Positions 5,009 to 62,518 of a stretch of 64,000 nucleotides of DNA are shown here, piece by piece. Source of the DNA: Bacteroidia bacterium (GTDB lineage: Bacteria; Bacteroidota; Bacteroidia; UKL13-3); assembly GCA_044370475.1 (NCBI GenBank), contig JBILVK010000003.1, positions 12,452-76,451 on the forward strand, in the 5' to 3' direction. The notes under the pieces are model-generated. The model did not search any database, had not been told where the DNA came from, and saw only the letters and a list, made by a program, of their open reading frames with translations. Both the position numbers and the translations under genes were made by a program. The number at the start of each line of letters is the position of its first letter. Position 1 is the stretch's first letter.

Positions 5009-5063
5009 GCTTTTTTATTTCGGTTTGAACCAATACAACAAGTGTAATAAATTTAGTCCTAAA

Positions 5064-5681
5064 TTAGAATATTCTTGGCCAAAACATAGGCACATTCATT
5101 TGATAGTTTTGATAAGCACTGCCAAATTGTTTAAGCAATTTTTTCTCTTCCCATCTTGCCCCAACATATAAATATACGCAGCCAATAAAGCTAAAGATAA
5201 AACTTCCCCAGCAAGGTTTATACATTAAATAACCAAACAATAAAAGATAGCTCGCGGTATACAATGGGTGTCGCATCAATTGGTTCAGACCGTTAATTTT
5301 TAACTCCTCCGAAATGGCCGCATTAAACGTTTTATTGCGCCATTGCATCAATCCCAAAAACTCGCTCATTTGATAATTTCTAAAACTTAAATAAGCCATT
5401 ACCAAACCCAATATCATAAGCACCAAGCCCAATATAAACAATACCTGCGAGCTATACCACCTTTCTTCTTCTATTTCGGTTTGAACCCAAACAGCCATGA
5501 AAAATAAAAGCAACGAAACGCCATTATACATAAACCGATAATAAGGCACACTCCCTTTTGCATGCTGGCTAACCCAATCCTTTGCCCGCGTAGATGCCAT
5601 AGCACTGTGCACGCCATAAAACAATAGCCAATGGATGATTAAATGAAGGTATGGATTCATTATTTTTATACTATGGACCAT
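5064..5681 (-). CDS. Membrane methyltransferase of the isoprenylcysteine carboxyl methyltransferase / PEMT / NnrU-like family.
   Basis: 205 aa, multiple predicted TM segments. Contains the C-terminal motif MRHPLYTASYLLLFG...GARWEEKKLLKQFGSAYQNYQMNVP typical of the ICMT/PEMT family. The start may instead be M8 (MNPY). Confidence 0.65.
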   Translation of the reverse strand: MVHSIKIMNPYLHLIIHWLLFYGVHSAMASTRAKDWVSQHAKGSVPYYRFMYNGVSLLLFFMAVWVQTEIEEERWYSSQVLFILGLVLMILGLVMAYLSFRNYQMSEFLGLMQWRNKTFNAAISEELKINGLNQLMRHPLYTASYLLLFGYLMYKPCWGSFIFSFIGCVYLYVGARWEEKKLLKQFGSAYQNYQMNVPMFWPRIF

Positions 5682-5712
5682 GGTCTATGGTCTATGGACG
5701 ACTTCTCATCAA

Positions 5713-6543
5713 CTAAATCACCACCTGCTCCAACAACCTAATTCCCTTCTCTGTCTGCTGCACCGTGCAAGCTGCGTGAAATGGGTCATGCTCAAAAAAC
5801 AAAATATCACCACGCTCAGCAGCAGTTGCTAAAATCGCACTCTTCTCCTGCATGGTGTCGAGCGGACGAACATCATAACCCATCACATAAGCCGTAGGAA
5901 TATGCGCTTGTGTTGGAATAACGTCTGCCAAATATACCACACGCTTTCCTTGATAAGGAATAATGGGATGAATCATTTGATTGGTATGGCCTTTAGAATA
6001 AATCAAATCAATCTCTGGATGAAACAACTCCCCTTCCTTCAATAATTTTAACTGTCCGCTCTCTTGTATTGGCAAAATATTGTCGCGCAAGAAACTCGCC
6101 TTCTCACGTGCATTGGGCTTCTGACTCTCATTCCAATGCGCCTCAGCAACCCAATAGGTAGCATTGGGAAAGGCCGTTTGAAAAGCTGTCCTATCCTTAT
6201 TCCACTCAATACTTCCGCCACAATGATCAAAATGCAAATGGGTTAAAACCATATCGGTAATATCTGCCTTGGTAAAGCCATGTTTGTTCAACGATTTCTC
6301 CAAACTATCATCGCCATGCAAAAAGTAAAATCCTAAAAATTTATCATCCTGCTTATTGCCAATACCATTGTCTATTAAGATTAATCTTTTTCCGTCCTGA
6401 ACCAACAAACAACGCATGGCCAAACGAATCATATTGTTCTCATCTGCAGGATTGGCCTTGTTCCAAATGCTCTTAGGAACCACGCCAAACATGGCTCCAC
6501 CATCCAACTTAAAATACCCCGTATCTATTGTAAATAATTCCAT
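5713..6543 (-). CDS. MBL-fold metallo-hydrolase (lactonase-like).
   Basis: 276 aa with the THLHFDHCGG (HxHxDH) metal-binding motif and downstream His/Asp residues. Confidence 0.8.
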   Translation of the reverse strand: MELFTIDTGYFKLDGGAMFGVVPKSIWNKANPADENNMIRLAMRCLLVQDGKRLILIDNGIGNKQDDKFLGFYFLHGDDSLEKSLNKHGFTKADITDMVLTHLHFDHCGGSIEWNKDRTAFQTAFPNATYWVAEAHWNESQKPNAREKASFLRDNILPIQESGQLKLLKEGELFHPEIDLIYSKGHTNQMIHPIIPYQGKRVVYLADVIPTQAHIPTAYVMGYDVRPLDTMQEKSAILATAAERGDILFFEHDPFHAACTVQQTEKGIRLLEQVVI

Positions 6544-6589
6544 GGAACAAGTTTAATAAAAAAATCAATCTGCCAAACTATAAAATTTT

Positions 6590-6940
6590 TGCTGGGACTT
6601 ACATTGCCTTTGGCCATTTTGTAAAAGTTCGGATTACAAATCCGAACTAGCACTGTTTTGTTTAATTAGCTGGAATGGTTAGCTGGGTTCGGATTACAAA
6701 TCCGAACTAGCCACTGTTTTGGTAGCTGGAAAGGATTTGTAATCCTTTCCTTAATTAACTCGCTTGCATAAAAATAGCTGGAAAGGATTTGCAATCCTTT
6801 CCTTAATCAACTCGCTTGCATAAAAATAGCTGGAAAGGATTTGTAATCCTTTCCTTAATTAACTCGCTTGCATAAAAATAGCTGGAAAGGATTTGCAATC
6901 CTTTCCTTAATCAACTCGCCTGCATAAAAACTAATCAACA
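6590..6940. repeat. Intergenic tandem repeat array. It has two ~57-bp units carrying the GTTCGGATTACAAATCCGAAC hairpin and four 60-bp units carrying the GGAAAGGATTTG(T/C)AATCCTTTCC hairpin.
   Basis: The periodicity and perfect palindromes were read directly from the sequence. The TGT and TGC loops alternate. Confidence 0.85.
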
Positions 6941-6941
6941 A

Positions 6942-7625
6942 CTACTTTTCCTTATTAAACATCTTACTCATACTATCAAACAAGATGCTAACATTAAAAT
7001 ATACCGCCTCTATACCTTCGTCGTTTTTCTTCACTTTTAATCGATCACATTGCATAGCAGTTAAACTTTGCATACCTGCAGATTCTAAATCCATCCAATT
7101 CAACATTGTATATTCATTACCTACATTAATCACCCAAAAGGCGGTTTCCTCCGTTTTACCATCACCCGTAGAATAAATCGTTTCCATAATTCCCCTAAAC
7201 ATCGCTATCGCATTTCTCCGCTCTGCATCCCTATCCAACATTTTATATGCGTAGGCAAGGTAAAGCCAATTGTCAACATCAAAGGGCATTTCCTTCAGCA
7301 CTTTCTCACTTAAGGTAATAATCTTCTCCAAGTCCTTTTCACTGTGCTTCTCTTTACTGTTTAAAATTTCCTTCAATTTTTTATCATCTCCACTTCCGTA
7401 CGGACTGTATTTTTCTTGCACTGCCCCACCATAATACAAATAGAAAAAATCATCTTCTAGCAGCATAGTATCTTTTTTTAAATACCTATTCATCAAACCC
7501 GAATAGTTATATTTTGCGCTATCTGCTAGCACCAGTTTAACTTCCTTTAAGTTTACTTTCCTAAAGGAATCCTGTCCAAAACATAAGCTTGGCAACAAAA
7601 AAAGTAGGCTAATTAATTTCATCAT
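6942..7625 (-). CDS. Hypothetical secreted protein (possibly DUF4919-like).
   Basis: 227 aa with the N-terminal signal peptide MMKLISLLFLLPSLCFGQ. Confidence 0.5.
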   Translation of the reverse strand: MMKLISLLFLLPSLCFGQDSFRKVNLKEVKLVLADSAKYNYSGLMNRYLKKDTMLLEDDFFYLYYGGAVQEKYSPYGSGDDKKLKEILNSKEKHSEKDLEKIITLSEKVLKEMPFDVDNWLYLAYAYKMLDRDAERRNAIAMFRGIMETIYSTGDGKTEETAFWVINVGNEYTMLNWMDLESAGMQSLTAMQCDRLKVKKNDEGIEAVYFNVSILFDSMSKMFNKEK

Positions 7626-7697
7626 ATAAAATTATAAAAAAGCAGGTTCGAACCAACAATTTTTATCAAAAAATCTTAAAAAAATGCAACTCAAAAA

Positions 7698-8141
7698 TCA
7701 ATTGAGTGCAAACCTAATTGGCAAAGTAAACTTTACCGTAACTGGCTTTCCATTTATCATACCTGGATTCCATCTAGGCATTGCCTTCACAACCCTAATA
7801 GCCTCCTCCTCTATTCCATAACCAATTGGCTCATTAACTGACATTATATCTGTAATTTCACCCGATTGAGTTACAACAAAATTCAACACAACCTTACCTT
7901 GCTTTTTCTTCTTTCTTGCCTCCATAGGGTATACAACATTACTACTTAGGTATTCATACATTTTGTCTACCCCACCTGGAAAGTCAGGCATTTGTTCAGT
8001 TTGATAGGGGATATCATTTGCTTTTGACCCTTTCACAGAAGAAGCAGAATCTTTTTTTTCTGAAACTTGTGCAACTGCATCAAAACCAAGAAATCCAAAA
8101 GCAAATAGAACCAAAAACTTAAAGTAGATTGTATTTTTCAT
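7698..8141 (-). CDS. TonB C-terminal domain protein (short energy-transducer TonB paralog).
   Basis: C-terminal MPDFPGGVDKMYEYLSSNVVYP...GKPVTVKFTLPIRFALN matches the TonB C-terminal domain. The track ORF extends to 8207, but the signal-peptide start MKNTIYFKFLVLFAF at 8141 is more plausible. Confidence 0.6.
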   Translation of the reverse strand: MKNTIYFKFLVLFAFGFLGFDAVAQVSEKKDSASSVKGSKANDIPYQTEQMPDFPGGVDKMYEYLSSNVVYPMEARKKKKQGKVVLNFVVTQSGEITDIMSVNEPIGYGIEEEAIRVVKAMPRWNPGMINGKPVTVKFTLPIRFALN

Positions 8142-8224
8142 AGTAAACAATAATAAATAAAATATAGGAAAAATAGATGGAATTCCAGTTAATGTTAAAT
8201 TCACCATTCTGGTAAAATTTAATA

Positions 8225-11200
8225 TTAACGAAGCAAGGTAACATTACCTTTTAGCGTTGCAAATTTACCTTTACGACCATACCCTGTGGCAACAAATACA
8301 TAAACATCTGAGGGCGCGGGAGCGCCATTAAACGTGCCATCCCAAGCGGCATACAAGTCAGTGGTTTCATAAACCGTTTCGCCCCACCTATTGTAAATGC
8401 GCAACTCAAAACTCTTGATAAAAACACCTTGTATCAAAAAACCATCATTCAGCAAATCTCCATTGCAGGTAAAGGCATTGGGTGCATACAACCTCGGCGC
8501 GGTATTCATGCAAGCGAGGTTCGACCAACTTTCAACCCAATTGCTGTCTTTCTGATAAGCCACCACCTGATAACAATAATCATCTTGATTAAAACTCAAA
8601 TAATTGTGCTTCACCGCAAAGGTATCTCCCATCATTTTTGTGGCTATCAATTGGTCAATTCCCAAACTATCATTCCTAAAAAATAACTCATACAGCTCCA
8701 CCCCAGAAGCCCATTCCTTGTAGGGATTCCAGCTCAACACAGGATCTGCCACCAACTTATCATTCTTCTCCATATCTATTTGCAACAACAAACTTTTAGC
8801 CATATTAGAGGGTTCTCCTAAACCACCACAAGCGTCTTCAATAAATACCAAATATTCATATGCGTAATTTTGTACATCCACGTCTGCATCCAAAAATGCA
8901 GTTTCGGTCTGATCCAAAACAATGCGCTTGAACATGCGATTAGGATCTAAACTCCTCTTTTCTATCACAAACTTATACGGAAATTTATGATTCCTCTTTT
9001 GCCATTGAACCAATACCTGCCTATTGTTTTCTACTGTAGCTCTCACCGTTCTGGTATGCGGTGTATTAGCCAAAAATAGTGGTATGGCCGCTGCAGTATC
9101 ACTCATAGAAACTTGTCCACCATAACTAGCCATTACCTTATAAAAAGTGAGCTTATGACAATACACCAAACTATCTACATAAGCTAAATTTGAACCAGGA
9201 ACTTCGCCAATCTTCTCAAATAAGTTCAGCTGCTCATTCAACCTATAAACCACATAAGTATTCACAGAATCCCAGCCCACATAAGGCGTCCAGTTCAGCT
9301 GTACCGCGTTCACCACACCATTTGCCTTAAGCTCAACTGTGGTATGTCTACGACTTGGTTCAGACCGATTATTACATACATCTACAGCCTGCATTTCATA
9401 AGAATAGTTATAGAAGCGTGTACTTAAATTGTTAAAATATTGAAAGGTATCGTTCAAGTTATTTACCGGCCTTTGTTGGCCAAAACTCACCCCATTCCAA
9501 TTGTAATGGATAAGGTAATAATCAAAATCTACCTCCGTATTTGATGGAAAGGAAAAGGATACCATCTCATCGGTTTCTACACTTGCTCTATAGGCAGTAG
9601 GCTTTTGGGGCGGAATAGTATCTTTAAAAACACTCACTGCTACAGAATCTATTTTTTGCCCCACACATCCTTGGTCGTCAATAACCTTAAACATCACTGG
9701 AATATTGCCCAAACGATTGCATAAGTAGGTGTGCGGACCAATTGAATAATGCAAAACTCCATCTATATTCCATACATGATAATTAACCGGAAATGGGTGT
9801 ACAACATCTCCCGTAAGTGTTATGCTTGCCCCCAAACATGCCTTCTTTTTACTGGCAAAAAAATCTACTTGTGGATTGGGAAAAACAGAAATCGAATCAA
9901 TAGGAGGCAATCCAACTTTACATCCTGCCGAATCAGTTAACGTTAAGTTTGGAATATACCTACCTGCTTGGGTATAGGTGTGTTTTGTATTGGCATTGGT
10001 ATCTATGGTTCCATCTCCCATATCCCATTCAAACTTTATAACATTGGTGGCAGTAGCACTAAAATCAACGGTTAAGGGTACACAACCATAATTGGGTGCA
10101 AGTGTAAAATTACCTTGTGGACCACCAATAACAATCATATCGGGAATGCTTTTAAATGAGGTGCATCCTATACTATCTGTAAGGGTAAGCTTAACAGAAT
10201 AAGACCCAGGCAAAAGATAAATACGGGTGGGATTTTGCAAACTTGATTGTCCGCCATCGCCAAACTCCCAATACCAATTCTTGATGGGTGTAGTGCCTGC
10301 TTTTGAATAATCGGTAAAATAAATTGGTGGTCCCGGACAGTTGATTTTCTTTGGGTTCGCATCAAAATCTACTTTAGGCGGACCCGTTACAATATGAAAA
10401 GTTTGGGCAAAAGAATCCTTGCAATTATAGGCATCCGTTGCTATCAATTTCACTAAAATGGAGGTATCTGCGCTATACACTTTTTTAAGGGTGCGGGCAG
10501 TAGAAATATGATTATCTATATTCCAAGTATAGTTCATTGGAGTTAATCCTACCAAATCATCAGCAATGGGCGTAAAGACAAATGTATCTGCTATACAATT
10601 CTTTTCTTGTTTAAAGGTAAACAGTGGCTTTGGTTTAGATATAAACAGTTTTCTATTTAATGAAAACCTGCATCCCATGCTATCCTCCACCACCAATTTC
10701 AAAGTAAATCCACTGTTCTGATAGGCAGGTGGAAGTTGATAAATATACCTAGAATAAATTGAATCGGGGTGCCCATAAACTGTTGAATCTCCTGTCCCCC
10801 AATACCATATTCTTTTGCGTATCGGTAAGTCGGTTCTAGATGAATCAACCACCTGCATGAGCATGGGCGCACAACCAAAAAAGGAACTTGCATTTAACTT
10901 CACTTGGCCTCCACTTACCAAAATAGAATCGGTTTTAAGTAAAGTGTACGAACACCCATTTTTATCCCTAATATTCATGGTAACAGAATACTTTCCAGGA
11001 TTAACCAAAAGCGCATTTACTTTATTTCCAGTATAGGTATTTCCACCTACCGTAAATTCACAAAATACAAAATCTGATGCAGGCTGTGTGGTATTGGTTA
11101 AGGTTAAGGTATGCGGCATACAAGCAACCTTTTCCGACATAGTAAAACTAGGTTTTATACCCGTTTGTATGTTTACACTTAAGGAGTGAACAGAGCTACA

Positions 11201-13231
11201 ACCTGTAAGGGTGTCTATGGCCAAAAGGGTAACCAAATATGTCCCACTGCTGTCATAATCATGGGTAACATTTCTAGAAGAAGATGTCCAACCATCACCA
11301 AAATTCCAAATAAATTTGTTCCCCCCACGGGTAAGGTTATTAAATGTCACAAACGACTTGGAGCAACCTGCTAAACTGGTAGTAAAACGTGCAATTGGAC
11401 CAAGAATTCGAATGTATTTTTGCTTAACCGTATCAGAGAGACAACCATGATGGTTTGCCACCAAACCAACATCAAAGGTGCCGGTATCTTTAAACACAAT
11501 TTGATTCTCGTTTTGTGATAAAATGATACTCGTATCAATTGGCGTCCAGGTATACTTTAAATTGGGTAAATTAGGAATGCTATTCTTGGTAAAAACCACG
11601 GGTTGTTCACTGTAACAATAAACCCTTTTAAGACTAGAAAAATCAAGCTTTACAGGCATTCCTACCTTCACCGTATCCACTTTTGAAAAGCTGCAACCTT
11701 CTACCGTAGTAGCCAATAATGTTACCAAATAAATACCTGTATCTAAATACGTATAATTTGCATTTTTACTCGTTGCATTTGCACCTACCTTCCCAAAATT
11801 CCAGTTAAACTGTGTAAAAGGTGGAGTATTGGTATCATTCACAAAAAATTGAACCGCCAAAGGAAAGCAACCAGATCTTGGCTGAATAAGAGTTCCAAGC
11901 ATTGCTGGCTTTACCACTATATAGGCAGGCCTCACCAAAGTATCCTTGCATCCATTTGCATGTGTGGTTATCAATGAAACAGTATAGGTACCATTTTGCA
12001 GGTAATTGGCGCTTGGATTTTTTTGGCTTGAACTTGTACTATTTCCAAAGTTCCATTGCCAAGAAACAGCATTGATGCTAGAGTCGCGAAAATTAACGTT
12101 TGCGGGCGTTTTGCAAAACCACAATCTATTGGCATCAAAATTACTTTTAGAAGAAGGCAATACCGTAAAAAAGGAAGGCTTCAAGGCATTTACTATGCAA
12201 TTTCCAATCTTAACCTTGAGTTCCAATGAGTAGGTGCCTGCTGCCAAATTATTTAAAACGGGATGTTTAAAATTTGAAACCAAAGCCCCATTTAAATACC
12301 ACTCATAGGTTATGCCAAAAGTGTCGAAATTGGTAGTATTGAATAGGGCAATTTTTCCAGGCGCACATAAATCTGGAGTACCACTTATGATAAAATTGGG
12401 AACCACATCTACTACCTTAATAAAGGCTGGCTTCACCACATTTACCGTACATTGAGCCGCATTTGTAACCCGCAATGAAACATTAAATTGTCCGTGCGCT
12501 GCATAATTTGCCGCAGGATCTTTAGCGGTGCTCTGGTTGCCATTGCCAAAGTCCCATTTGTAACTGTAGACCGATGCCGGAGAAACGCTACTAGTAAATT
12601 GTGTTGCAAAGGGTGCGGTACAACCAAAGAAAGGGCTGGCCGTAAAATCAACTATAGGTTTGGTCTGAACCAATATATAATTATTTTTAATCAATGCTTT
12701 TTTACACCCGTTGCCATCCGTAACCATCAAACTGATATGGTAAGAACCTCCATTGCTAAATGTGTTAAAAGGATTCTTAAGATTAGAAACCTGACCATCT
12801 CCAAAGTCCCACGACCAAGCAGAAATGGTACTTAATGGCGAGCTGCTTATATCAGTAAAACCAATCTTAAGAGGAGCACAACCAGAGGTACTTGTAACTT
12901 GAAAATCAACGCTAGGTAAAGGATAAACAGTGATATAATCAACCATTGTTTTGATATTGGTACCTAAAGAATTACTTACGGTTAATTTTACGGTATATTT
13001 TCCAGCAGTAACAAAAGAAGCCGATGGATTTTGAAGGGTAGATTTATTTCCATTGCCAAAATCCCATAAATAATTAATGGGATTATTGGTAGAAAGGCTG
13101 GTAAACTGCACCAGCATGGGCGCACAGCCATACGTTTGATTCGCAGAAAAATTGGCAACAGGTTGTGTAAATCCTTTAAAACTAATTAAAAGAAGCACAA
13201 AATATAGCAATTTCCTGGGTATGATAGGCAC
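8225..13231 (-). CDS. Giant PKD-repeat surface protein with a gliding-motility-associated C-terminal domain (T9SS type B sorting domain).
   Basis: 1668 aa. Signal peptide present, many PKD-like repeats (WDFGDG, YTVKLTVSN, GCxxxxxxxI), and FN3-like segments. C-terminal ...YNRWGETVYETTDLYAAWDGTFNGAPAPSDVYVFVATGYGRKGKFATLKGNVTLLR is typical of the CHU_C / T9SS type B domain. Confidence 0.8.
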   Translation of the reverse strand: MPIIPRKLLYFVLLLISFKGFTQPVANFSANQTYGCAPMLVQFTSLSTNNPINYLWDFGNGNKSTLQNPSASFVTAGKYTVKLTVSNSLGTNIKTMVDYITVYPLPSVDFQVTSTSGCAPLKIGFTDISSSPLSTISAWSWDFGDGQVSNLKNPFNTFSNGGSYHISLMVTDGNGCKKALIKNNYILVQTKPIVDFTASPFFGCTAPFATQFTSSVSPASVYSYKWDFGNGNQSTAKDPAANYAAHGQFNVSLRVTNAAQCTVNVVKPAFIKVVDVVPNFIISGTPDLCAPGKIALFNTTNFDTFGITYEWYLNGALVSNFKHPVLNNLAAGTYSLELKVKIGNCIVNALKPSFFTVLPSSKSNFDANRLWFCKTPANVNFRDSSINAVSWQWNFGNSTSSSQKNPSANYLQNGTYTVSLITTHANGCKDTLVRPAYIVVKPAMLGTLIQPRSGCFPLAVQFFVNDTNTPPFTQFNWNFGKVGANATSKNANYTYLDTGIYLVTLLATTVEGCSFSKVDTVKVGMPVKLDFSSLKRVYCYSEQPVVFTKNSIPNLPNLKYTWTPIDTSIILSQNENQIVFKDTGTFDVGLVANHHGCLSDTVKQKYIRILGPIARFTTSLAGCSKSFVTFNNLTRGGNKFIWNFGDGWTSSSRNVTHDYDSSGTYLVTLLAIDTLTGCSSVHSLSVNIQTGIKPSFTMSEKVACMPHTLTLTNTTQPASDFVFCEFTVGGNTYTGNKVNALLVNPGKYSVTMNIRDKNGCSYTLLKTDSILVSGGQVKLNASSFFGCAPMLMQVVDSSRTDLPIRKRIWYWGTGDSTVYGHPDSIYSRYIYQLPPAYQNSGFTLKLVVEDSMGCRFSLNRKLFISKPKPLFTFKQEKNCIADTFVFTPIADDLVGLTPMNYTWNIDNHISTARTLKKVYSADTSILVKLIATDAYNCKDSFAQTFHIVTGPPKVDFDANPKKINCPGPPIYFTDYSKAGTTPIKNWYWEFGDGGQSSLQNPTRIYLLPGSYSVKLTLTDSIGCTSFKSIPDMIVIGGPQGNFTLAPNYGCVPLTVDFSATATNVIKFEWDMGDGTIDTNANTKHTYTQAGRYIPNLTLTDSAGCKVGLPPIDSISVFPNPQVDFFASKKKACLGASITLTGDVVHPFPVNYHVWNIDGVLHYSIGPHTYLCNRLGNIPVMFKVIDDQGCVGQKIDSVAVSVFKDTIPPQKPTAYRASVETDEMVSFSFPSNTEVDFDYYLIHYNWNGVSFGQQRPVNNLNDTFQYFNNLSTRFYNYSYEMQAVDVCNNRSEPSRRHTTVELKANGVVNAVQLNWTPYVGWDSVNTYVVYRLNEQLNLFEKIGEVPGSNLAYVDSLVYCHKLTFYKVMASYGGQVSMSDTAAAIPLFLANTPHTRTVRATVENNRQVLVQWQKRNHKFPYKFVIEKRSLDPNRMFKRIVLDQTETAFLDADVDVQNYAYEYLVFIEDACGGLGEPSNMAKSLLLQIDMEKNDKLVADPVLSWNPYKEWASGVELYELFFRNDSLGIDQLIATKMMGDTFAVKHNYLSFNQDDYCYQVVAYQKDSNWVESWSNLACMNTAPRLYAPNAFTCNGDLLNDGFLIQGVFIKSFELRIYNRWGETVYETTDLYAAWDGTFNGAPAPSDVYVFVATGYGRKGKFATLKGNVTLLR

Positions 13232-13249
13232 AAAATTCTAATTGCTAGC

Positions 13250-51180: not shown

Positions 51181-51186
51181 TTGCTA

Positions 51187-52533: not shown

Positions 52534-52537
52534 GGGA

Positions 52538-54423: not shown

Positions 54424-54919
54424 AATAAGTATCGTCTTTGTCTGTTCTTGTTTGGTCTTCTAAAGGATATTCTTTCCTCATTGGGAAGTATTCCATTTCC
54501 TCTACATTTAATATGCGTTTGAGGTTGGGGTGACCCACAAACTCAATTCCAAAGAAATCGAAGGTTTCTCTTTCTTGCCAATTTGCGCCATTAAACAGAG
54601 CACTTACCGTATCTATTTTTGGATCAGACAGAGGCATATAACATTTAATTCTAAGCCTAATGTTCTGGGTAAAACTGTGTAAATGGTAAATGGTAGAAAG
54701 CTCCTTGCCTGGGTTGTTAGGAAAATGTGCCCCACATACATCTGTTAAAAAATTAAACTTTAAAACAGGATGATTGATTAAATATTCAAACATAGGAACT
54801 ATGTCTTTTCTATCTAGCTCAATGGTTAACATGCCATATGGCTCTTCCACCGAATAGATGGATGCTGCAAATTGTTCCTGCAATTCTTTCAGCAAATATG
54901 CATTGTTTACTTCGCTCAT
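54413..54919 (-). CDS. nuoC: NADH-quinone oxidoreductase subunit C.
   Basis: 168 aa 30-kDa subunit in operon position, separate from nuoD. Confidence 0.85.
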   Translation of the reverse strand: MSEVNNAYLLKELQEQFAASIYSVEEPYGMLTIELDRKDIVPMFEYLINHPVLKFNFLTDVCGAHFPNNPGKELSTIYHLHSFTQNIRLRIKCYMPLSDPKIDTVSALFNGANWQERETFDFFGIEFVGHPNLKRILNVEEMEYFPMRKEYPLEDQTRTDKDDTYFGR

Positions 54920-55461
54920 TATTGTATACCGTAACTGGCCATTAATGCTTTGTATTCTGGAGACTCCCTGCGTGTTAATGCTTCTGTTTTTACCAACTCT
55001 TGTATCTTAATGATACCATCTATAATTTGTTCTGGACGTGGCGGACAGCCAGGAACATAAACATCTACAGGAATTACTTTATCTATGCCTTGCAATACAG
55101 AGTAGGTATCAAAAATACCACCGCTAGATGCGCAAGCACCTACAGCGATAACCCATCTTGGTTCGGCCATTTGCAAATAAACTTGTCTTAAAACCGGACC
55201 CATTTTCTTAGAAATTGTTCCCGTTACCATTAACAAATCTGCTTGGCGTGGAGAGAAAGAAATTCGTTCTGAACCAAAGCGCGCTAAATCGTAATTAGAT
55301 GCCATGGTAGCCATAAACTCAATGCCACAACATGATGTGGCAAAGGGCAAAGGCCAAATTGAATTGGCGCGTGCTAAACCTATTGCTTTATCAAGACTTG
55401 TAGCAAAAAAACCCTGCCCTTCTAGGCCTGGAGGTGCTTGTGTGATTTTTACAGACGACAT
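54919..55461 (-). CDS. nuoB: NADH-quinone oxidoreductase subunit B.
   Basis: CCGIEFMA...GACASSGG...PGCPP cluster-N2 motifs. Confidence 0.9.
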   Translation of the reverse strand: MSSVKITQAPPGLEGQGFFATSLDKAIGLARANSIWPLPFATSCCGIEFMATMASNYDLARFGSERISFSPRQADLLMVTGTISKKMGPVLRQVYLQMAEPRWVIAVGACASSGGIFDTYSVLQGIDKVIPVDVYVPGCPPRPEQIIDGIIKIQELVKTEALTRRESPEYKALMASYGIQ

Positions 55462-55492
55462 AAAAAAACTTTAGATTTTATTGGTTTCAAAA

Positions 55493-55876
55493 TTACTCCC
55501 ACTTTAAAGCGCCCTTTTTTAGGATGTAGAAAAATCCCAATAATAAGGTGCTTATAAATATCAACATTTCATAGAATCCTAATGGACCCAATGCTTTAAA
55601 ATTAACTGCCCATGGATACATGAAGATTACCTCCACATCAAACATCACAAACAAAATGGCAGTTAAAAAATAACGAATAGAAAATGGCATACGCGCATTT
55701 CCCTGCGGCTCAATTCCACACTCAAACACATCGAGCTTGTCACTTGTCTTTCGTTTTGGTCCAACCATATGCGAAACAACGATGGCAAAAACCACAAAAC
55801 CTACAGCTACTAAGAACTGCATAAAAATGGCGAAATAATCAACGCTTGTAGACATAATATTATATAATAAAGCCAC
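55493..55876 (-). CDS. nuoA: NADH-quinone oxidoreductase subunit A.
   Basis: 127 aa with three TM segments. First gene of the operon. Confidence 0.85.
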   Translation of the reverse strand: MALLYNIMSTSVDYFAIFMQFLVAVGFVVFAIVVSHMVGPKRKTSDKLDVFECGIEPQGNARMPFSIRYFLTAILFVMFDVEVIFMYPWAVNFKALGPLGFYEMLIFISTLLLGFFYILKKGALKWE

Positions 55877-56251
55877 GCAAAAATAGATTTTTACCCTTAA
55901 TGGAAGCTGATTTTAGTCAGAAAAAAATGTAATTTCTTTCAACAATTTTAACTCAATGAAATAGAGTTCATTACAAGTATAAAAAAGCAAGAAATGTTAG
56001 AAAATGTTTATGTATTGTCATTTTCTTGCGTTTTGGCCTGGTTTTTTGACCTTAAATTCTGCTAAAAATGGGCGCAGAATCTCAAAAATCATTCTCCTAA
56101 GCTTTGAGTTATTTTTGCCTTTTTAGCCCCTTATTTTCATTTGTTTTTTCAGCCTTATTAATTTGCTTTTGCTAGCTTTTAAATATGCAACAACAAATAC
56201 CCAAACTTGTTTGAAGTTTGGCATAATGTTACAATCAACAAACAAGAAAAT
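55877..56251 (-). promoter_or_regulatory. 375-bp AT-rich leader and promoter region of the nuo operon.
   Basis: Position upstream of nuoA. No specific -33/-7 elements were verified. Confidence 0.3.
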
Positions 56252-57037
56252 TTATTTGGATTTAGCTTCGTTCCAAATGCCATCCATCTCCTCAAGGCTC
56301 ATGTCGGTAAGCAATTTGCCCATAGATTTGGCACGCTCTTCAATGAACATAAATCGGGTGATAAACTTTTGGTTGGTATATTCTAAGGCATCGTCTGGAT
56401 TAAGGCCAGATTTACGTGCTAAATTGATTAAGGCAAACAATAAATCACCAAACTCCTGTTCAGATTTTAATTTATTATCGGGCTGAACCAACTCCTCTTT
56501 CAACTCTTCCAACTCCTCATGAACCTTGCCCCACACCTGTTCGCTGGTCGCCCAATCGAAACCTACTTGCGATGCCTTATCTTGTATGCGCAGTGCCTTC
56601 ACCAAAGATGGCGCTCCTTTGGTTACTCCACTTAGAACAGATTTATTGCCTTCTTTAAGCTTAATCTGTTCCCAGTTTTCTTTTACCTGTTGTTCATTCT
56701 CCACCTTAACATCACCATAAATATGTGGGTGCCGCACAATCAACTTTTCGCACAAGGTATGTATCACATGCGAGATATCGTACTCACCCATTTCACTGGT
56801 GATGCGGGCATAAAAAACAATATGCAACAACACATCGCCAAGTTCTTTTTGAAGCTCTTTGAGGTCGTTTTTGATGATGGCATCTGTAAGTTCGTAAGTC
56901 TCCTCTATGGTTAGATGCCTGAGGCTTTCCAAGGTTTGCTTTTTATCCCACGGACATTTCTCACGCAGCTCATCCATGATATCGAGGAGGCGCGAAAATG
57001 CTTGTAATTTTTCTTCCTTGCTACTTAAATTATCCAT
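56252..57037 (-). CDS. mazG: Nucleoside triphosphate pyrophosphohydrolase MazG.
   Basis: 261 aa with two MazG EExxE-type motifs (IEETYELTDAI and EELEELKEEL regions). Confidence 0.8.
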   Translation of the reverse strand: MDNLSSKEEKLQAFSRLLDIMDELREKCPWDKKQTLESLRHLTIEETYELTDAIIKNDLKELQKELGDVLLHIVFYARITSEMGEYDISHVIHTLCEKLIVRHPHIYGDVKVENEQQVKENWEQIKLKEGNKSVLSGVTKGAPSLVKALRIQDKASQVGFDWATSEQVWGKVHEELEELKEELVQPDNKLKSEQEFGDLLFALINLARKSGLNPDDALEYTNQKFITRFMFIEERAKSMGKLLTDMSLEEMDGIWNEAKSK

Positions 57038-58277
57038 GGTCTAAAATGATTAAGCCCGTGCGAATTTTGGGTTCAATCCAAGTTGATTTTGGCGGCATAA
57101 TTAAGTTCTCCTCTGCCACTGCTTTTACCTCTTCTATGCTGGTTGGATATAAGGTAATAGCCACATCAAAATCTCCTTTATCTACGGCCTCTTGCAAGTG
57201 TCCAATTCCCTTACCGCCATCCATAAAACTTAAGCGGTGATCGGTCTTACTATCTGTAATATTAAAGATGCGTTTTAAGATGTATTCTTCTACAATGCTT
57301 ACATCTAAATTATCAAGGGTTCCACTTAGGCTTTCTTCTATCTCTGGTTTTAATTGTAAGAGATAAGCTTTGCCATGGTAATACAAGCCAAACTCCTTTT
57401 TGTTTAGCGGCTGCACAGGTAAATGTCCGCTCGGAATTTTGATAAAATACTTCTTAATTTCTTCAATGAAATTAGGGGCATCAACCACCGACTTATCGCG
57501 CACCAATCTATGGTATTCAAAAATACTTAACTTGCTAAATGGGATCAGACAGACAGGAAAAAAATTAAAGGTTTCTTCGCCTGTATAACCGGGATTTTCT
57601 TTGCGCATAATTTCGCAAAATGCTGCCGACCCAGCAGAGCGATGATGTCCGTCTGCTATATACAATTGTGGAATGGCCTCAAATCTTGTTTCTAGGAGCT
57701 CAATATCTTTCTCTTCAGTTACCACCCAGAGGTTATGTTTTACCTGGTCGGCACTAATAAAATTATACTCTGGAATATGTTTTACAATGTACTGATTAAT
57801 GAGTAAATCTATGGATTGATCATCTGGGTAAGTAAGCAATACAGGATTGCCCAAGTTGTTGTAAAACCTAATGTGTTCGGCAATTTCGTTTTGCTTATCG
57901 GTGAGCGTATTTTCGTGCTTTAGGATATTATTATTGAGGTAATCATCTACACTGGCCATGGCAATAATTCCGGCATAAGCCTGGTGCCCTTTGATGAGCC
58001 TATAAATATAAAATGCTGGGGCTTCATCTTTAATAAGCAAGCCTTGCTCCCTAAACTTCTTGAGGTATTCTAAGCCAATTGGAAAGTGCTTTTCTGGGTT
58101 CTTCTTCTCACCTTTAAAGTGCAAATAGGGCTTCACCACATGCAAATATGAAACCGGATTATGGGTAACTTCATACAATGCTTGGTCTTTAGAACCACCA
58201 TCAAATGGGGGTGCACTCACCTCTCCTGCCCGCTCTTTACAAGGGCGCAGGGCTGCAAATGGTTTTACTTTTGCCAT
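57030..58277 (-). CDS. DUF1015 family protein.
   Basis: 415 aa. The N-terminus MAKVKPFAALRP matches the DUF1015 signature from memory. It is adjacent to serA/serC, as in other Bacteroidota. Confidence 0.55.
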   Translation of the reverse strand: MAKVKPFAALRPCKERAGEVSAPPFDGGSKDQALYEVTHNPVSYLHVVKPYLHFKGEKKNPEKHFPIGLEYLKKFREQGLLIKDEAPAFYIYRLIKGHQAYAGIIAMASVDDYLNNNILKHENTLTDKQNEIAEHIRFYNNLGNPVLLTYPDDQSIDLLINQYIVKHIPEYNFISADQVKHNLWVVTEEKDIELLETRFEAIPQLYIADGHHRSAGSAAFCEIMRKENPGYTGEETFNFFPVCLIPFSKLSIFEYHRLVRDKSVVDAPNFIEEIKKYFIKIPSGHLPVQPLNKKEFGLYYHGKAYLLQLKPEIEESLSGTLDNLDVSIVEEYILKRIFNITDSKTDHRLSFMDGGKGIGHLQEAVDKGDFDVAITLYPTSIEEVKAVAEENLIMPPKSTWIEPKIRTGLIILDHG

Positions 58278-58301
58278 GAATAAGGGTTTATTTTAAGGAA
58301 A

Positions 58302-59267
58302 CTACTTCTTTAAAAACTCAATCACTTTTTCTGCCAATTCAATGCTAATTCTGTTTTGTGCTTCTTTGGTGCTACCTCCTACGTGCGGACTTAACGACAC
58401 GTGTGGATGTTGCAAGATATCCATATTTACAGGTGGTTCTTTTTCGAACACATCTAAACCAGCAAATGAAACTTGTCCGCTATTTAATGCAGCCAATAAA
58501 TCGCTTTCACTAATTACACCGCCTCTTGAGCAATTTACTAAGCCTACTCCGTGTTTCATCTTAGCAATAACTTCAGCATTTATAGGAGCTTTATCACCTT
58601 CGTTAAAAGGAATATGGAAAGTAATAAAATCACTTTGTGTAATCACAGATTGCTCACTTACGGTGTTTATGGCAACCTTAATTCTTGAATTGGCACCCAA
58701 CATAGGCAGGTTTAAAACCAACTCCATTTGGTCAACATAAGGATCAAATGCAAGCACCTTCATCCCTAATCCGATGGCTATTTTAGCTACTTCCTGACCA
58801 ATTCTACCAAAGCCATAAATACCCATGGTTTTGCCTTGTAGTTCTATGGCATTTGAAGCTGTTTTCTTGAGTTCAGCAAAACGCGCATTGCCTTCTGATG
58901 GCATAATGCGGTTGGTATGTTGTAAGAACCTAATGCCAGAAAACAAATGGGCAAATACCAATTCTGCCACACTAATAGAAGAAGAGGCAGGAGTATTAAT
59001 TACCTTAATTCCTTTTTGCTTGGCATGTTCAACGTCTATATTATCCATGCCTACGCCACCGCGACCTATGAGCTTAAGGTTGGGACAAGCATCTATTAAT
59101 TCTTTGCGCACTTTTGTAGCGGATCGAACCAATATAGCGTCGAAGTTATTAAGCTCAGTCATTAACTGATCTTGTGGTATTTTTTGGGTGATTACTTCAA
59201 ATCCTGCTGATTCTAAAATCAGTTTTCCACTTGAGTCGATTCCGTCGTTTGCTAGTATTCTTATCAT
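58302..59267 (-). CDS. serA: D-3-phosphoglycerate dehydrogenase-like 2-hydroxyacid dehydrogenase.
   Basis: 321 aa. NAD-binding GIYGFGRIGQEVA and catalytic region GRGGVGMDNIDVEHA. It is adjacent to serC. Confidence 0.7.
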   Translation of the reverse strand: MIRILANDGIDSSGKLILESAGFEVITQKIPQDQLMTELNNFDAILVRSATKVRKELIDACPNLKLIGRGGVGMDNIDVEHAKQKGIKVINTPASSSISVAELVFAHLFSGIRFLQHTNRIMPSEGNARFAELKKTASNAIELQGKTMGIYGFGRIGQEVAKIAIGLGMKVLAFDPYVDQMELVLNLPMLGANSRIKVAINTVSEQSVITQSDFITFHIPFNEGDKAPINAEVIAKMKHGVGLVNCSRGGVISESDLLAALNSGQVSFAGLDVFEKEPPVNMDILQHPHVSLSPHVGGSTKEAQNRISIELAEKVIEFLKK

Positions 59268-59500
59268 TTTTTTTTAGTTATGCTGTTGGCTATTAGCTTT
59301 TGGCTTTTGCTTTGTTTACCGACTTTGTTTACAGAAGCCTTGGCGTAAGTTAAAGTTATTAATTATGAATTATGAGGTAAGAGTTAAGAGTTATGCTTCT
59401 GGCAGCTGGCCTCCGGCTTGTCTGCCAAAGCTTAAGCGAATGCTGAGCCTCTGGCTCTTTCTGTTTCTCTTTCTGTTTCTATTCTACTGTTTTTTTTAAT
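59268..59500. repeat. Oligomer-repeat spacer between serA-like and serC (GCTGTTGGCTATTAGC, TTATGAATTATGAGGTAAGAGTTAAGAGTTATG, AGCTTAAGCGAATGCTGAGC, CTTTCTGTTTCTCTTTCTGTTTC).
   Basis: Direct reading. It shares modules with 31400-31450 and 53110-53130. Confidence 0.75.
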
Positions 59501-60571
59501 CTATGCGTTGCTTTTTTCGAAATCTTGCATGGCATCTACTAGGGCTTGTACACTTTCTATGTCTAATGCATTATATAAAGAAGCACGTAATCCACCTACC
59601 GAACGATGTCCTTTTAATCCGCTTAAGTTTCTGTCTTTACACAACTTTAAGAAAGCCTCTTCGTGGTCTTTGTTGGTAAGCACAAAGTTTACATTCATGC
59701 GGCTGCGGTCTTCTACTACAACTGTACCCACAAACAAAGGATTGCGGTCTATTTCTGCATACAATAAATCTGCTTTTGCTTTGTTTCTTACCTCCATGGC
59801 CTCTAGGCCAATTTCTTTGATCCAACGCAAAGTATGCATACATACAAAGATGGCAAACACACTTGGCGTATTGTACATACTACCATTCTCAACATGCACC
59901 TTATAATTTAACATGGTAGGCACTTTTGCATTGGCTTTCTCTAAGAATGATTTCTTAATAATAACCAAGGTAGTACCTGCAGGACCCATATTTTTTTGAG
60001 CACCCGCGTATATCATATCAAATTGAGTAGCATCAAAAGGCCTGCTAAAAATATCAGAACTCATGTCGCATATTAATGGAACAGGTGAGCTAGGAAAGCT
60101 AAACATTTCTGTTCCGTAAATGGTATTGTTGCTGGTGCAATGGTAATAAGCAGCATCTGCTGGAATGGCATAATCCTTTGGAATATAGTTGAAGTTTTTG
60201 TCCTCACCAGACGCCAATACATTTACCTCACCAAACATTTTGGCCTCCTTAATGGCTCTACCTGCCCAAACACCTGTGTTTACATAAGCAGCAGATTTGC
60301 CAGCAGGCAAGAAGTTCATAGGAATCATATCAAATTGAAGACTTGCTCCACCTTGTAAAAAGATTACCTCATAGTCGTTGCCTAAATTCAAAATTTCCTT
60401 CACCAATTGAGTGGCCTCAGAAACTACAGCTTCATACTCCTTGCTTCTATGCGAAACCTCGATGAGAGATAAGCCTGTTCCAGAAAAATTTTGTAGCGCA
60501 GAAATACTGGCATCAATTGCAGATTGGGGTAAAATTGCCGGACCTGCAGAGAAATTATGTACTTTGGTCAT
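59501..60571 (-). CDS. serC: 3-phosphoserine/phosphohydroxythreonine aminotransferase.
   Basis: N-terminus MTKVHNFSAGPAILPQSAI and a PLP-lysine region typical of SerC. Confidence 0.85.
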   Translation of the reverse strand: MTKVHNFSAGPAILPQSAIDASISALQNFSGTGLSLIEVSHRSKEYEAVVSEATQLVKEILNLGNDYEVIFLQGGASLQFDMIPMNFLPAGKSAAYVNTGVWAGRAIKEAKMFGEVNVLASGEDKNFNYIPKDYAIPADAAYYHCTSNNTIYGTEMFSFPSSPVPLICDMSSDIFSRPFDATQFDMIYAGAQKNMGPAGTTLVIIKKSFLEKANAKVPTMLNYKVHVENGSMYNTPSVFAIFVCMHTLRWIKEIGLEAMEVRNKAKADLLYAEIDRNPLFVGTVVVEDRSRMNVNFVLTNKDHEEAFLKLCKDRNLSGLKGHRSVGGLRASLYNALDIESVQALVDAMQDFEKSNA

Positions 60572-60643
60572 ATTGTTTAGCGTTAATAGCAGTGCGAATT
60601 AATAAAACCTTGACCGAATTTTATTCATATAATTGATTTATTT

Positions 60644-61225
60644 TTGCCCAACATGAAAAAACTATCCATATTATTACTCACCTTTCTTGTTTTAGGTCTG
60701 AACACAAAGGCCCAAAGAAAGCTGCAACAGCTAGACGAAGAGGAAGCTAAGAAGCAGGAACAGTTAAAAGCATATGAAGGTAAAAGAACTGGCTTTGATC
60801 CCGAAAAATTAACATACGGAGGAAATGTTGGCGGAGGATTTAGTGGAACATACGGCTATTTTTTGGCTCAGCCCATGGTTGGTTATAAGGTAAAACCAAA
60901 AACCATCTTGGGAACGGGCTTCACTTATATCTACGAATCACAAAAAATTAACAATAAAACCTATAGCTCCTCGGCTTATGGTCCAATTTTATTTGCCAGA
61001 CAAGGTTTAATAGGAAATTTCTTTGCACATGCAGAATGGGCTCCTATGAATTACGAAGTATTTAAAACACCTACTATTTCTGAAAGGCAATGGTTTAACC
61101 AATTATTTGTGGGCGGAGGAACGGGCGGACAAGGAGCGCAAGTATATGTATTATATAATGTATTGCACTACCAGAATCCTTATGCTACTAGTCCGTGGTA
61201 TTTTAGAATTGGCCTTATGTTCTAA
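60644..61225 (+). CDS. Hypothetical secreted or outer-membrane protein.
   Basis: 193 aa with signal peptide MKKLSILLLTFLVLGLNTKAQ. Confidence 0.4.
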   Translation: MPNMKKLSILLLTFLVLGLNTKAQRKLQQLDEEEAKKQEQLKAYEGKRTGFDPEKLTYGGNVGGGFSGTYGYFLAQPMVGYKVKPKTILGTGFTYIYESQKINNKTYSSSAYGPILFARQGLIGNFFAHAEWAPMNYEVFKTPTISERQWFNQLFVGGGTGGQGAQVYVLYNVLHYQNPYATSPWYFRIGLMF

Positions 61226-61238
61226 ATTTTGGGATAAT

Positions 61239-61847
61239 TTAGAATTGGTTCAGAAAGAATTTAAATACTTGAGGTTTAAAAACGAGGGTAAAAATGATGC
61301 CATAAATTGCTCCATATAAGTGAGCTTCATGGTTTACATTATCATTGTTTTTTTGCGAAGAATATTGCGAGTAAACTAAGTACAAAATTCCACCAATATA
61401 ACCTGGAATTCCAATGATGCCATAGAGGTAAATTTTGGCAGTAGGTTGAAATAAAATAGAAGCAAATACTACCGCGGAAACCGCTCCAGATGCTCCCAGC
61501 GCGTTATAACCTGGATTATTTTGCTGACGGTAATAGGTGCTTGCATTGGCAGCTACAATGCTACTTAAATACAATAATATATAGACCCAAATAGAAGCGC
61601 TTCCAAAGAAGTAAGCATAGTAGTGTTCTACCACGGGACCAAAGCTAAAAAGTACGAACATATTTACAAGGAGGTGCATCCAATCTGCGTGTAAAAATCC
61701 GGAGCTGAGAAACCTTATCCATTCATTTCTGTTTTTGATGGTATAGGGATTAAAAATTAATTTGTTCATCAATTGTGTGTTGCTAAAAGCTTGAATGCTT
61801 AAAATTGCAGTAACGGCAATGATGATGATGCTTATGCTAAAATTCAT
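61239..61847 (-). CDS. Rhomboid family intramembrane serine protease.
   Basis: 202 aa with the GASGAVSAVVFA (GxSG) motif and a downstream catalytic His in a TM helix. Confidence 0.75.
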   Translation of the reverse strand: MNFSISIIIIAVTAILSIQAFSNTQLMNKLIFNPYTIKNRNEWIRFLSSGFLHADWMHLLVNMFVLFSFGPVVEHYYAYFFGSASIWVYILLYLSSIVAANASTYYRQQNNPGYNALGASGAVSAVVFASILFQPTAKIYLYGIIGIPGYIGGILYLVYSQYSSQKNNDNVNHEAHLYGAIYGIIFTLVFKPQVFKFFLNQF

Positions 61848-61881
61848 GCCTCAAAACTAACAAAAATTTAGACGAATAGCG

Positions 61882-62376
61882 ATGAAACAAATTGGGATAC
61901 TAAGTGATACACATGGTTATTTGCCACCTGCCTTAAAAGAATTCTTTGCAAATTGTGATGAGATTTGGCATGCAGGAGATTGGGGAACTAAGGCGCTGGT
62001 GGAGGATTTGGAGCAGTTTAAACCCTTACGTGGTGTATATGGAAATATAGATGGAACAGAGATAAGGCAAATAGTTCCAGAAACAAATTATTTTGAGGTA
62101 GAAGGCCTTTGGGTTTTCATGATTCACATTGGTGGATACCCAGATCATTATGCCCCAAATTTTAAGAAATGGATAGGAAAGCAAAAAATTGACATTATGG
62201 TGTGCGGACATTCACATATTTTGCGGGTAATGAAAGATGTGAAGCATAATTGGCTTCATATAAACCCGGGAGCATGTGGAAATCATGGTTTTCAAAAGGT
62301 TAATACGGCGCTTAGGTTTAAAATACATGACAAAAAAATGACTGATTTAGAGGTCTGGGAGCAAAAAAGAGGATAA
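61882..62376 (+). CDS. Metallophosphoesterase (YfcE-like phosphodiesterase).
   Basis: 164 aa with motifs SDTHG, GD, GNID and GHSH. Confidence 0.75.
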   Translation: MKQIGILSDTHGYLPPALKEFFANCDEIWHAGDWGTKALVEDLEQFKPLRGVYGNIDGTEIRQIVPETNYFEVEGLWVFMIHIGGYPDHYAPNFKKWIGKQKIDIMVCGHSHILRVMKDVKHNWLHINPGACGNHGFQKVNTALRFKIHDKKMTDLEVWEQKRG

Positions 62377-62518
62377 ATCCACGCAACCTTGCTAAATATT
62401 GGATTGACTTATTTAAATAAAATATTATTTTGCTCACCAAATTATGGGCTGGTGCGGTTGGTATTTGTGAAAAAGTGCTTGGTTCGAACCGAAAAAAAAA
62501 GAAAAAAAGAGTAGATAT

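Follow-up and report, generated by a model that had tools for sequence, protein, structure and literature searches.

What kind of element is GGTYYGAACC, a 10-mer that recurs in unrelated genes and in intergenic gaps over 64,000 nt of a Bacteroidota contig (JBILVK010000003.1; this stretch is referred to as the window)? An earlier note, made from the letters of the window, had compared it with the DNA uptake sequences (DUS) of Neisseria and the uptake signal sequences (USS) of Pasteurellaceae. According to the comparisons described below, in which all sequences were contigs of metagenome-assembled genomes (MAGs) or metagenomes, the source lineage carries hundreds of copies of one 12–16-base word; a drive of the DUS/USS type, based on DNA uptake and recombination, is tentatively placed first among the explanations for it.

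Sequence, abundance and layout of the word

GGTYYGAACC gave 19 strand matches at 15 loci of the window (one exact 10-mer per 4.3 kb; four loci are palindromes and match on both strands), compared with a mean of 0.30 in 100 dinucleotide shuffles, none of which gave more than 4. The perfect palindrome GGTTCGAACC was present in 4 copies versus 0.02 expected. The excess noticed before was real, but its estimated size of 20–30-fold was too low (approximately 60-fold); 14 of the 15 exact coordinates given for it were right, the remaining one (9358) being shifted by one base from 9357. Among the seven listed one-mismatch sites, five lie within 3 bases of sites found here and a sixth, 56474, corresponds to 56480, whereas the one at 8526 could not be recovered; altogether the window contains 19 sites of this kind.

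The true unit is longer than the 10-mer, asymmetric and quasi-palindromic: The alignment of all 27 TGAACCAA sites resulted in the consensus tTyCGGTCTGAACCAA, in which the CTGAACCAA core hardly varies, the 3' half is best conserved and conservation is graded towards the left. In the k-mer census, the non-trivial words with the most copies were TCTGAACCAA (15 copies) and GGTCTGAACCAA (8 copies), which places the centre of gravity 3' of the 10-mer. The conserved flanks described earlier were confirmed, while the 10-mer itself did not hold as the conserved unit. In comparison to Markov-3 simulations of the window, the excess of 12-mers was restricted to the close neighborhood of GGTCTGAACCAA, with 8 observed versus 0 expected without mismatch, 9 versus 0.27 at one mismatch and 20 versus 4.5 at two mismatches; at three mismatches the counts were at background again (46 versus 48). 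This spectrum corresponds to approximately 33 surplus sites per 64 kb. Synonymous-codon shuffling of the coding sequence did not reproduce the excess either (GGTYYGAACC, 13 observed versus 1.3 expected; CTGAACCAA, 22 versus 1.3; GGTCTGAACCAA, 9 versus 0.06). The frequency therefore lies above codon-shuffled and Markov backgrounds, and, in agreement with the earlier note, the copies are dispersed in unrelated genes rather than confined to one repeat family.

Sites with up to two mismatches from GGTCTGAACCAA amounted to 37 strand matches at 36 loci, of which 31 fall in coding sequence of unrelated housekeeping genes and five are intergenic (3.0 expected). Their spacing was random, with 7 neighbors less than 400 bp apart versus 7.1 expected, and paired sites, ends of miniature inverted-repeat transposable elements (MITEs) and invertible segments (e.g. 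19351/19534 and 35273/35393) were rejected on the same count. In the window, 25 sites are oriented on the plus and 10 on the minus strand; relative to the genes, antisense sites outnumber sense sites both here (22 versus 9) and on other contigs of the lineage (20 versus 9), where about 60% antisense would be expected from the TGA block alone. The strand skew is explained by the gene orientation together with the in-frame TGA, which blocks one sense frame. The palindromic form had been regarded as peculiar to gene-gene gaps, with five examples: Only four of these are perfect GGTTCGAACC copies (the site at 5022 is GGTTTGAACC), and the association with gaps is true of these four only, since 6 of 7 palindromes on other contigs of the same lineage are located deep inside open reading frames (ORFs) of 217–786 aa.

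Distribution in the lineage and species-specific dialects

A scan of metagenome contigs seeded with the 15-mer TTCGGTCTGAACCAA returned 120 loci. Those with a GC content of 45–69% contained the seed only, i.e. chance matches that serve as a built-in control, whereas approximately 20 loci of 35–40% GC revealed many additional copies (e.g. L108 with 7 copies of CTGAACCAA over 13.6 kb and L188 with 5 over 2.9 kb). All of these motif-rich loci lie outside the window, and the pair L119/L152 is the only one with an overlap; their sequence logo is the same as that of the window, and their density of near-cognate sites, seeds excluded, is equal (0.61 per kb versus 0.58 per kb). They encode unrelated housekeeping functions (H+-PPase, LpxK, IspG, LeuRS-type and TyrRS-type synthetases, QueA) as well as a rhodopsin with lycopene cyclase/Blh and parts of the type IX secretion system (T9SS). 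In consequence of the equal density on these contigs, the motif is genome-wide. The source lineage is an uncultured freshwater member of the Bacteroidota with T9SS genes and, on other contigs of the lineage, rhodopsin; on one motif-rich contig (L134:4439-7256) the latter adjoins a fused lycopene cyclase/beta-carotene dioxygenase, for which reason the lineage is probably a photoheterotrophic lake bacterium. The Mpl protein of the window is also encoded on contigs of many lake metagenomes (99.85–100% identical to the window); among these same-species contigs there were 0 variable motif positions versus 0.2 expected, numbers too small to discriminate. A scan of IMG/VR gave 49 matches, essentially all seed only, and no motif-rich viral contig, although the phages of the host may be missing from this collection. 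One viral or prophage contig (L233; UViG_2974664081_000001, GC 0.55) contains seven copies of TGAACCAA in 13 kb (5014-12895), six of them as TGAACCAAG and lacking the left half; this may be an unrelated over-represented word.

The motif is clade-restricted and occurs in species-specific dialects. Of 80 loci around valS from GTDB species representatives, the 69 with 58–65% ValRS identity (Pedobacter, Mucilaginibacter, Chitinophagales and others; 1.23 Mb) showed no excess (GGTTTGAACC, 3 versus 5.1 expected; GGTCTGAACC, 1 versus 1.8), while close relatives were enriched 15–50-fold for variant words. The 22.6-kb locus of the lake MAG MsE-30jul19-124 (L018) contained nine copies of TTGAACCAA and four of GGTTTGAACC (0.1 expected). 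Four further species were compared by their syntenic nuo loci, which were found via NuoL homologues: GGNYYGAACC had 6–9 copies in each of them versus 0.42–0.44 expected, and GGTTTGAACC reached 3–5 copies per 22 kb (0.1 expected) in L212, L215 and L217 as in L018; L211 had one copy of GGTTTGAACC with seven members of the GGNYYGAACC family (0.43 expected). The favorite word differs by species, being GGTTTGAACC in L212 and CTGAACCTA(A) (seven copies, besides TTGAACCAA) in L217; in L020 (85% ValRS identity) the variant word is possibly GGATCGAACC with three copies in 12 kb, which is little sequence. The dialect assignments for L020, L211 and L215 are based on 12–22 kb each. The more distant syntenic loci L267 and L268 (76% and 69% NuoL identity) were near background (2 versus 0.7–0.8 expected). 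The closest ValRS relative (L011, 87% identity, 5 kb) has repeated words of its own (AGCTAAAGGCCAATAGC, 4–7 copies), and no member of the GGNNNGAACC family is present in this short locus.

Sites within genes and their change between species

All five stop-free combinations of frame and strand are used by the word (antisense LVQ, xGSx and WF; sense GLNQ and xEPx), whereas the third sense frame would read TGA. The earlier note's peptide readings were confirmed, both LVQT, which is encoded in the PKD protein, mpl and nuoL, and GLNQ, encoded in three genes; readings in further frames (xGSx, WF, xEPx) come in addition. Its codons are unusual for the genome: Leu is encoded by CTG and Gln by CAG, which genome-wide contribute only 10% of CTG+TTG and 26% of CAG+CAA, respectively. 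Codon-by-codon comparison with orthologues revealed zero indels at the sites, and several sites were made by amino acid replacement, e.g. in trmD (RCLNQ versus RCLDA or RCLQH; LVQIE versus LVNID), mazG (LVQPD versus FNKDH) and tonB (VGSDGK versus VNSDGS). The sites arise via point substitution in unrelated pre-existing sequence. The use of all frames and both strands, the rare codons, the missing indels and the codon-shuffle excess together support the view that drive or selection acts on the DNA word and not on a peptide (as already stated in the earlier note), RNA or repeat element. An origin from RNA or tRNA genes (the word is T-arm-like) was rejected, as scans of the window with Rfam and ARAGORN detected neither; a dispersed repeat of the MITE or repetitive extragenic palindromic (REP) type was rejected on the basis of a similarity that stops at approximately 16 nt, the 31 coding loci and the lack of indels.

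Once established, sites are retained in orthologous places of different species. Over the 22-kb nuo-exb region, aligned for five species (71–77% nucleotide identity), 73 of 136 site-pairs kept the family pattern at the same position versus 16.8 expected from equally degenerate patterns, the pairs not being phylogenetically independent. The preferred central bases differ among related species, and in the window lineage independent sites have undergone the change in a concerted way: Three sites that are conserved between species show T in the relatives but C in the window lineage, namely mpl 19351 (CAA to CAG), mpl 19534 (TTG to CTG) and nuoL 45182 (CAA to CAG; T in six relatives). None of these three changes alters the amino acid, and each leads to the rarer codon; a general shift in codon usage as their cause was rejected, since CTG and CAG are still minor codons. 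In sister MAGs (89% nucleotide identity), the nuoL site, the only one of the three covered there, likewise has C, and all five core sites of the region are shared, whereas the next relative L270 (76%) has T at the nuoL site; the dialect switch is therefore bracketed on the tree. In nuoN, a site whose right flank is CCTA persists in four relatives; in the window species, where CCAA is required, it has decayed. At the exbB-exbD gap the position of the site is retained while its flanks change jointly and stay complementary (TTTGG..CCAAA, TTGGG..CCCAA, TTCGG..CCGAA), which points to a symmetric component in the putative recognition. The individual sites are compiled in Table 1.

Table 1. Copies of the word and near-cognate sites in the window, with orthologous sequences where compared.
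Form	Position	Strand	Context
GGTTTGAACC(AA), older dialect form	5022..5031	+	gap between ORFs 4700-5008(-) and 5064-5681(-)
GGTCTGAACC(AA)	5282..5291	-	in NnrU/PEMT-like membrane methyltransferase gene 5064-5681; reads N-G-L-N-Q
GGTTTGAACC(CA)	5478..5487	+	antisense in NnrU/PEMT-like gene 5064-5681
palindrome GGTTCGAACC	7645..7654	.	gap, DUF4919 gene to TonB_C gene
GGTCTGAACC(AA)	9357..9366	-	gene of 1668-aa PKD-type protein, 8225-13231; frame R-S-E-P
GGTCTGAACC(AA)	12662..12671	+	antisense in PKD-type gene 8225-13231, L-V-Q-T; L018 sequence here unrelated
GGTCTGAACC(AA)	15238..15247	+	T9SS-cargo gene 14216-17500; frame I-G-S-D
TTCGGTCTGAACCAA	19353..19362	-	mpl, L-V-Q-T-E; orthologous site GGTTTGAACC in L018, GGTTCGATCC in L020
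GGTCTGAACC(AA)	19534..19543	+	mpl, A-G-L-N-Q, Leu = rare CTG; L018 and L020 orthologues GGTTTGAACCAA (TTG)
GGTTTGAACC	23941..23950	-	1486-aa T9SS-cargo gene 20017-24477
TTCGGTCTGAACCAA	24277..24286	+	1486-aa T9SS-cargo gene 20017-24477; F-G-L-N-Q
palindrome tttcGGTTCGAACCaa	33978..33987	.	gap, GNAT gene 33473-33961 to DUF4287 gene 34016-34234
16-nt perfect palindrome TTTGGTTCGAACCAAA	41313..41322	.	between exbB (41333-42157) and exbD (40652-41260); position kept in 3/4 relatives
tccGGTCTGAACCAA	45182..45191	+	C-terminal part of nuoL, R-L-V-Q-T, Gln = CAG; six relatives GGTTTGAACC (CAA)
palindrome GGTTCGAACC	62481..62490	.	105 nt downstream of Metallophos_2 gene; 5' edge of M43-peptidase ORF
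near-cognate TGTCTGAACCAA	35273..35284	-	trmD, R-C-L-N-Q; relatives RCLDA, RCLQH and others
near-cognate GATCTGAACCAA	35393..35404	+	trmD, L-V-Q-I-E; relatives LVNID
near-cognate GGGCTGAACCAA	56480..56491	+	MazG gene; orthologous site GGTTTGAACC (L212), GGGTTGAACC (L215), GGTCTGAACC (L217), absent in L211
other sites, up to 2 mismatches from GGTCTGAACCAA (span 1499..61256)	1499, 6394, 8906, 15676, 18160, 20071, 23330, 29333, 29768, 39348		
other sites, up to 2 mismatches from GGTCTGAACCAA (continued)	42815, 44127, 45552, 52068, 54619, 55266, 60695, 60863, 61245		

The gene content of the window is that of an ordinary T9SS-bearing Bacteroidota chromosome (mpl, valS, rplS, trmD, the nuoA-N operon and exbBD-tonB, further a serine-cycle-type dehydrogenase and aminotransferase and large Por_Secre_tail cargo proteins). 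A nucleotidyltransferase/HepT-type toxin-antitoxin pair (50541-51180) is located within the nuo operon between nuoF and nuoG; the insertion is shared by some relatives (P0005 contig, L217) and absent in others (L211, L212 and L215). Intergenic tandem arrays with 25-, 52/53- and 67/105-bp units (6723-6930, 13276-13680, 13909-14034, 17804-17938, 18028-18158 and 31606-31842), each unit of which has a short GC-rich hairpin (AATCCCGGAGGGAT, ACCCCTCTGGGGT or GCGAAGCCGAAGGC), flank the T9SS-cargo gene 14216-17500 and are also found near the ORF 31518-31811; they are unrelated to GGTYYGAACC. A perfect (AAAT)x17 microsatellite (17557-17623) just upstream of the start of the minus-strand gene 14216-17500 could be a phase-variation tract. 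GATC is rarer than expected in the window and the same-dialect loci, with 466 copies in 190 kb versus approximately 770–816 expected, which may reflect restriction avoidance; TTCGAA and TCGA are about as frequent as expected.

Candidate explanations for the word

The creation, persistence and re-tuning of the sites would call for a factor that acts in trans and recognizes the word in double-stranded DNA, together with a process that fixes matching sequences genome-wide. To judge from the properties compared here, only two described phenomena behave like this, the uptake sequences of Neisseriaceae and Pasteurellaceae and HIP1 (highly iterated palindrome 1) of cyanobacteria. By its sequence the word would be a member of none of DUS, USS and HIP1, but statistically it works like them. 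It resembles DUS (Frye et al. 2013; bioRxiv 10.1101/2025.10.24.684340) as a 10–12-nt word with an invariant core on both strands of genes and gaps, in its hundreds to thousands of copies, in lineage dialects differing by 1–3 bases and in orthologous sites that are converted in concert; the heptamer GTCTGAA common to the word and GCCGTCTGAA is a coincidence. It differs from DUS in its consensus TTCGGTCTGAACCAA, which is not an GCCGTCTGAA-type 10–12-mer or a described dialect with the conserved CTG core in frame, in its flanks and phylum, in being quasi-palindromic, in an approximately 4-fold lower density of the exact word and in the arrangement of gap copies as single palindromes instead of inverted pairs in terminators. 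With USS it shares the strong core (9 nt in USS) with weaker flanks, the tail of variants with one or two mismatches, and coding copies in several frames that are made by point substitution and sometimes alter the protein; however, the USS cores AAGTGCGGT or ACAAGCGGT are unrelated to the word, and no AT-rich, helically phased flanks were noticed at it, though no analysis was aimed at them. HIP1 (GCGATCGC; PMC5861425, PMC4390886, bioRxiv 10.64898/2026.06.24.733823), which is 15–300-fold over-represented, tied to methylases and, after its function had long been obscure, recently linked to transformation, is likewise hyper-abundant, independent of the frame and conserved at orthologous positions, with a palindromic ancestry and lineage variants. 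In contrast to the word (12–16 nt, mostly asymmetric, in one small clade, the perfect palindrome being a minority form), HIP1 is a perfect 8-nt palindrome with known methylase targets and phylum-wide occurrence. The DUS/USS-like signature proposed earlier therefore stood with regard to the statistics (core and flanks, mismatch tail, dialects, concerted change) and failed with regard to sequence and inverted pairs, and HIP1 fits the quasi-palindrome and the conservation equally well.

An uptake and recombination drive of the DUS/USS type is considered the leading explanation, at a confidence that stays below an even chance. It is ranked first because of the asymmetric dominant form, the drive-like mismatch spectrum, the concerted dialect conversion and the preference of Riemerella columbina, a transformable member of the Bacteroidota, for its own DNA in transformation, for which no uptake motif was found (PMC7965970). 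According to this model, a competence receptor at the surface or in the periplasm would prefer DNA fragments that carry the word, and homologous recombination of the preferentially imported conspecific DNA would spread new copies by molecular drive, perhaps assisted by selection for conspecific exchange; drift of the receptor specificity would generate the dialects, and sites that fit the old dialect alone would be converted (GGTTTGAACC to GGTCTGAACC) or decay.

Several points weigh against this explanation. To our knowledge, no member of the lineage has been cultured or is known to be transformable. The competence or cognate binding genes, for which a search had been suggested, were not found: Pfam scans of 20 window proteins and 95 ORFs of motif-rich contigs (approximately 190 kb of the lineage, of which approximately 125 kb of same-dialect contigs lie outside the window) detected no competence, pilin, secretin, receptor or cognate binding gene, including none similar to ComP, the minor type IV pilin that is the receptor of DUS; the genes recognized were of the housekeeping, T9SS and rhodopsin kinds. 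The sole gene lead is a weak one, a 673-aa protein with an N-terminal ComEA-type HHH_3 domain on a motif-rich contig (L108:1379-3397), which scores 18.8 bits on NCBIfam comEA (cut-off 152), has no relative in the PDB and whose gene itself holds a palindromic copy of the word. Moreover, the enriched quasi-palindrome hints, as with HIP1, at a dimeric DNA-binding protein or methylase and not at a monomeric pilin like ComP, inverted site pairs showed no excess in the window, though DUS and USS are often paired in terminators, and the long conservation of individual sites has, in the case of HIP1, been taken to argue for selection in cis over continual replenishment.

The word might alternatively be a HIP1-like element, i.e. 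a site bound or modified by an orphan methyltransferase or by an abundant chromosomal DNA-binding protein that is probably a dimer, with sites kept by a function in cis (e.g. nucleoid organisation or methylation-dependent repair or recombination) and dialects that follow changes of the protein. This reading, which is rather unlikely but comes second due to the palindromic ancestry and the long site conservation, would overlap with the uptake model if the mark enhances transformation, as recently proposed for HIP1. The quasi-palindromic architecture with its surplus of GGTTCGAACC, the palindrome context of 11 of 48 TTCGAA sites, the co-varying, complementary exbB-exbD flanks, the conservation of orthologous sites at approximately 4-fold over background, as for HIP1 (PMC5861425), and a fold-enrichment within the HIP1 range are consistent with it. 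On the other hand, the dominant form in the window is asymmetric at 3 of 8 symmetry-related pairs with the strongest constraint on one half only, no methyltransferase was found in the approximately 190 kb of the lineage, TTCGAA itself is neither enriched nor avoided, and the local spacing is random (over 64 kb, too short a stretch for judging the 10–90 kb periodicity reported for HIP1). Restriction avoidance of TTCGAA was likewise not seen.

It is improbable that the word is neutral and only reflects a sequence-specific bias of repair or gene conversion, in which e.g. a Vsr-type very-short-patch endonuclease or a nicking enzyme would correct towards a functionless word. The creation of sites by point substitution against codon preference would fit such a bias, as would the CpG deamination of the palindrome that gives exactly the ancestral dialect (GGTTCGAACC to GGTTTGAACC) and the depletion of GATC to approximately 0.6 of the expectation, a hint of active restriction-modification systems. 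Very-short-patch biases, as established for Dcm/Vsr of E. coli, concern 4–6 bases with a modest excess, in contrast to the more than 100-fold excess of a 12-mer with 15–16 informative positions; individual sites persist across species of 71–77% identity, against simple replenishment, and no vsr or methylase gene was seen in the inspected contigs (approximately 190 kb).

A polar signal for chromosome processing, of the Chi (RecBCD/AddAB) or FtsK-orienting polar sequence (KOPS) type, over-represented on one replichore strand, is very improbable: These are likewise over-represented short words read by a DNA-processing machine, and both the orientation of the sites in the window (25 versus 10) and the density of about one exact site per 4 kb, like that of Chi in E. 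coli, are in line with one, but the skew is accounted for by gene orientation and the TGA frame block, Chi and KOPS are asymmetric, strongly replication-polar words of 5–8 nt with only few-fold enrichment as opposed to a nearly palindromic 12–16-nt word, and palindromic copies are identical on both strands. The chance that no DNA-level feature exists (i.e. coincidence, codon or peptide usage, a dispersed MITE/REP repeat or an assembly artefact) is close to nil, for although TGAACC and GAACCAA are present in some conserved coding contexts (nuoB AEP, ValRS WFS) and the window also has unrelated intergenic tandem repeats, the word exceeds all three null models, occurs on both strands in every usable frame, shows no similarity past approximately 16 nt and no indels, was recovered at the same sites in independent assemblies (JGI, ENA, Logan, NCBI) and coincides with empty Rfam and tRNA scans, whereby peptide, RNA, repeat-element and artefact explanations are excluded.

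In the literature searched for the word itself and for uptake sequences in Bacteroidetes/Bacteroidota, no report of such a motif was found, as had been surmised in the earlier note, and the latest comparative study still restricts its list of uptake sequences to the two proteobacterial families. In its most far-reaching form, which is put forward tentatively and with more doubt than confidence, the uptake model would imply the first DNA-uptake-sequence system outside the Proteobacteria: A rhodopsin-bearing clade of lake Bacteroidota would tag its own DNA with a 12–16-nt word that is read by a receptor, and the drift of specificity (GGTTTGAACC to GGTCTGAACC, CCAA versus CCTA flanks, others) would act as recombination barriers between co-occurring freshwater species. 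Sequence-specific uptake has been known for more than 40 years from only two proteobacterial families, HIP1 being a recent further candidate; if true, the word would be the third or fourth independent case and self-DNA tagging a recurrent phenomenon rather than a curiosity of host-associated pathogens. For this clade, which is abundant but uncultured in freshwater, the dialects would then be a ready marker for gene flow and species boundaries in lake metagenomes, the comparison of motif-rich and motif-poor sister genomes would offer a handle on the reader protein via phylogenetic profiling, and donor DNA supplied with the word could open these organisms to genetic work. If the word is instead a HIP1-like chromosomal mark, it would provide a second independent system for studying what hyper-abundant words do.

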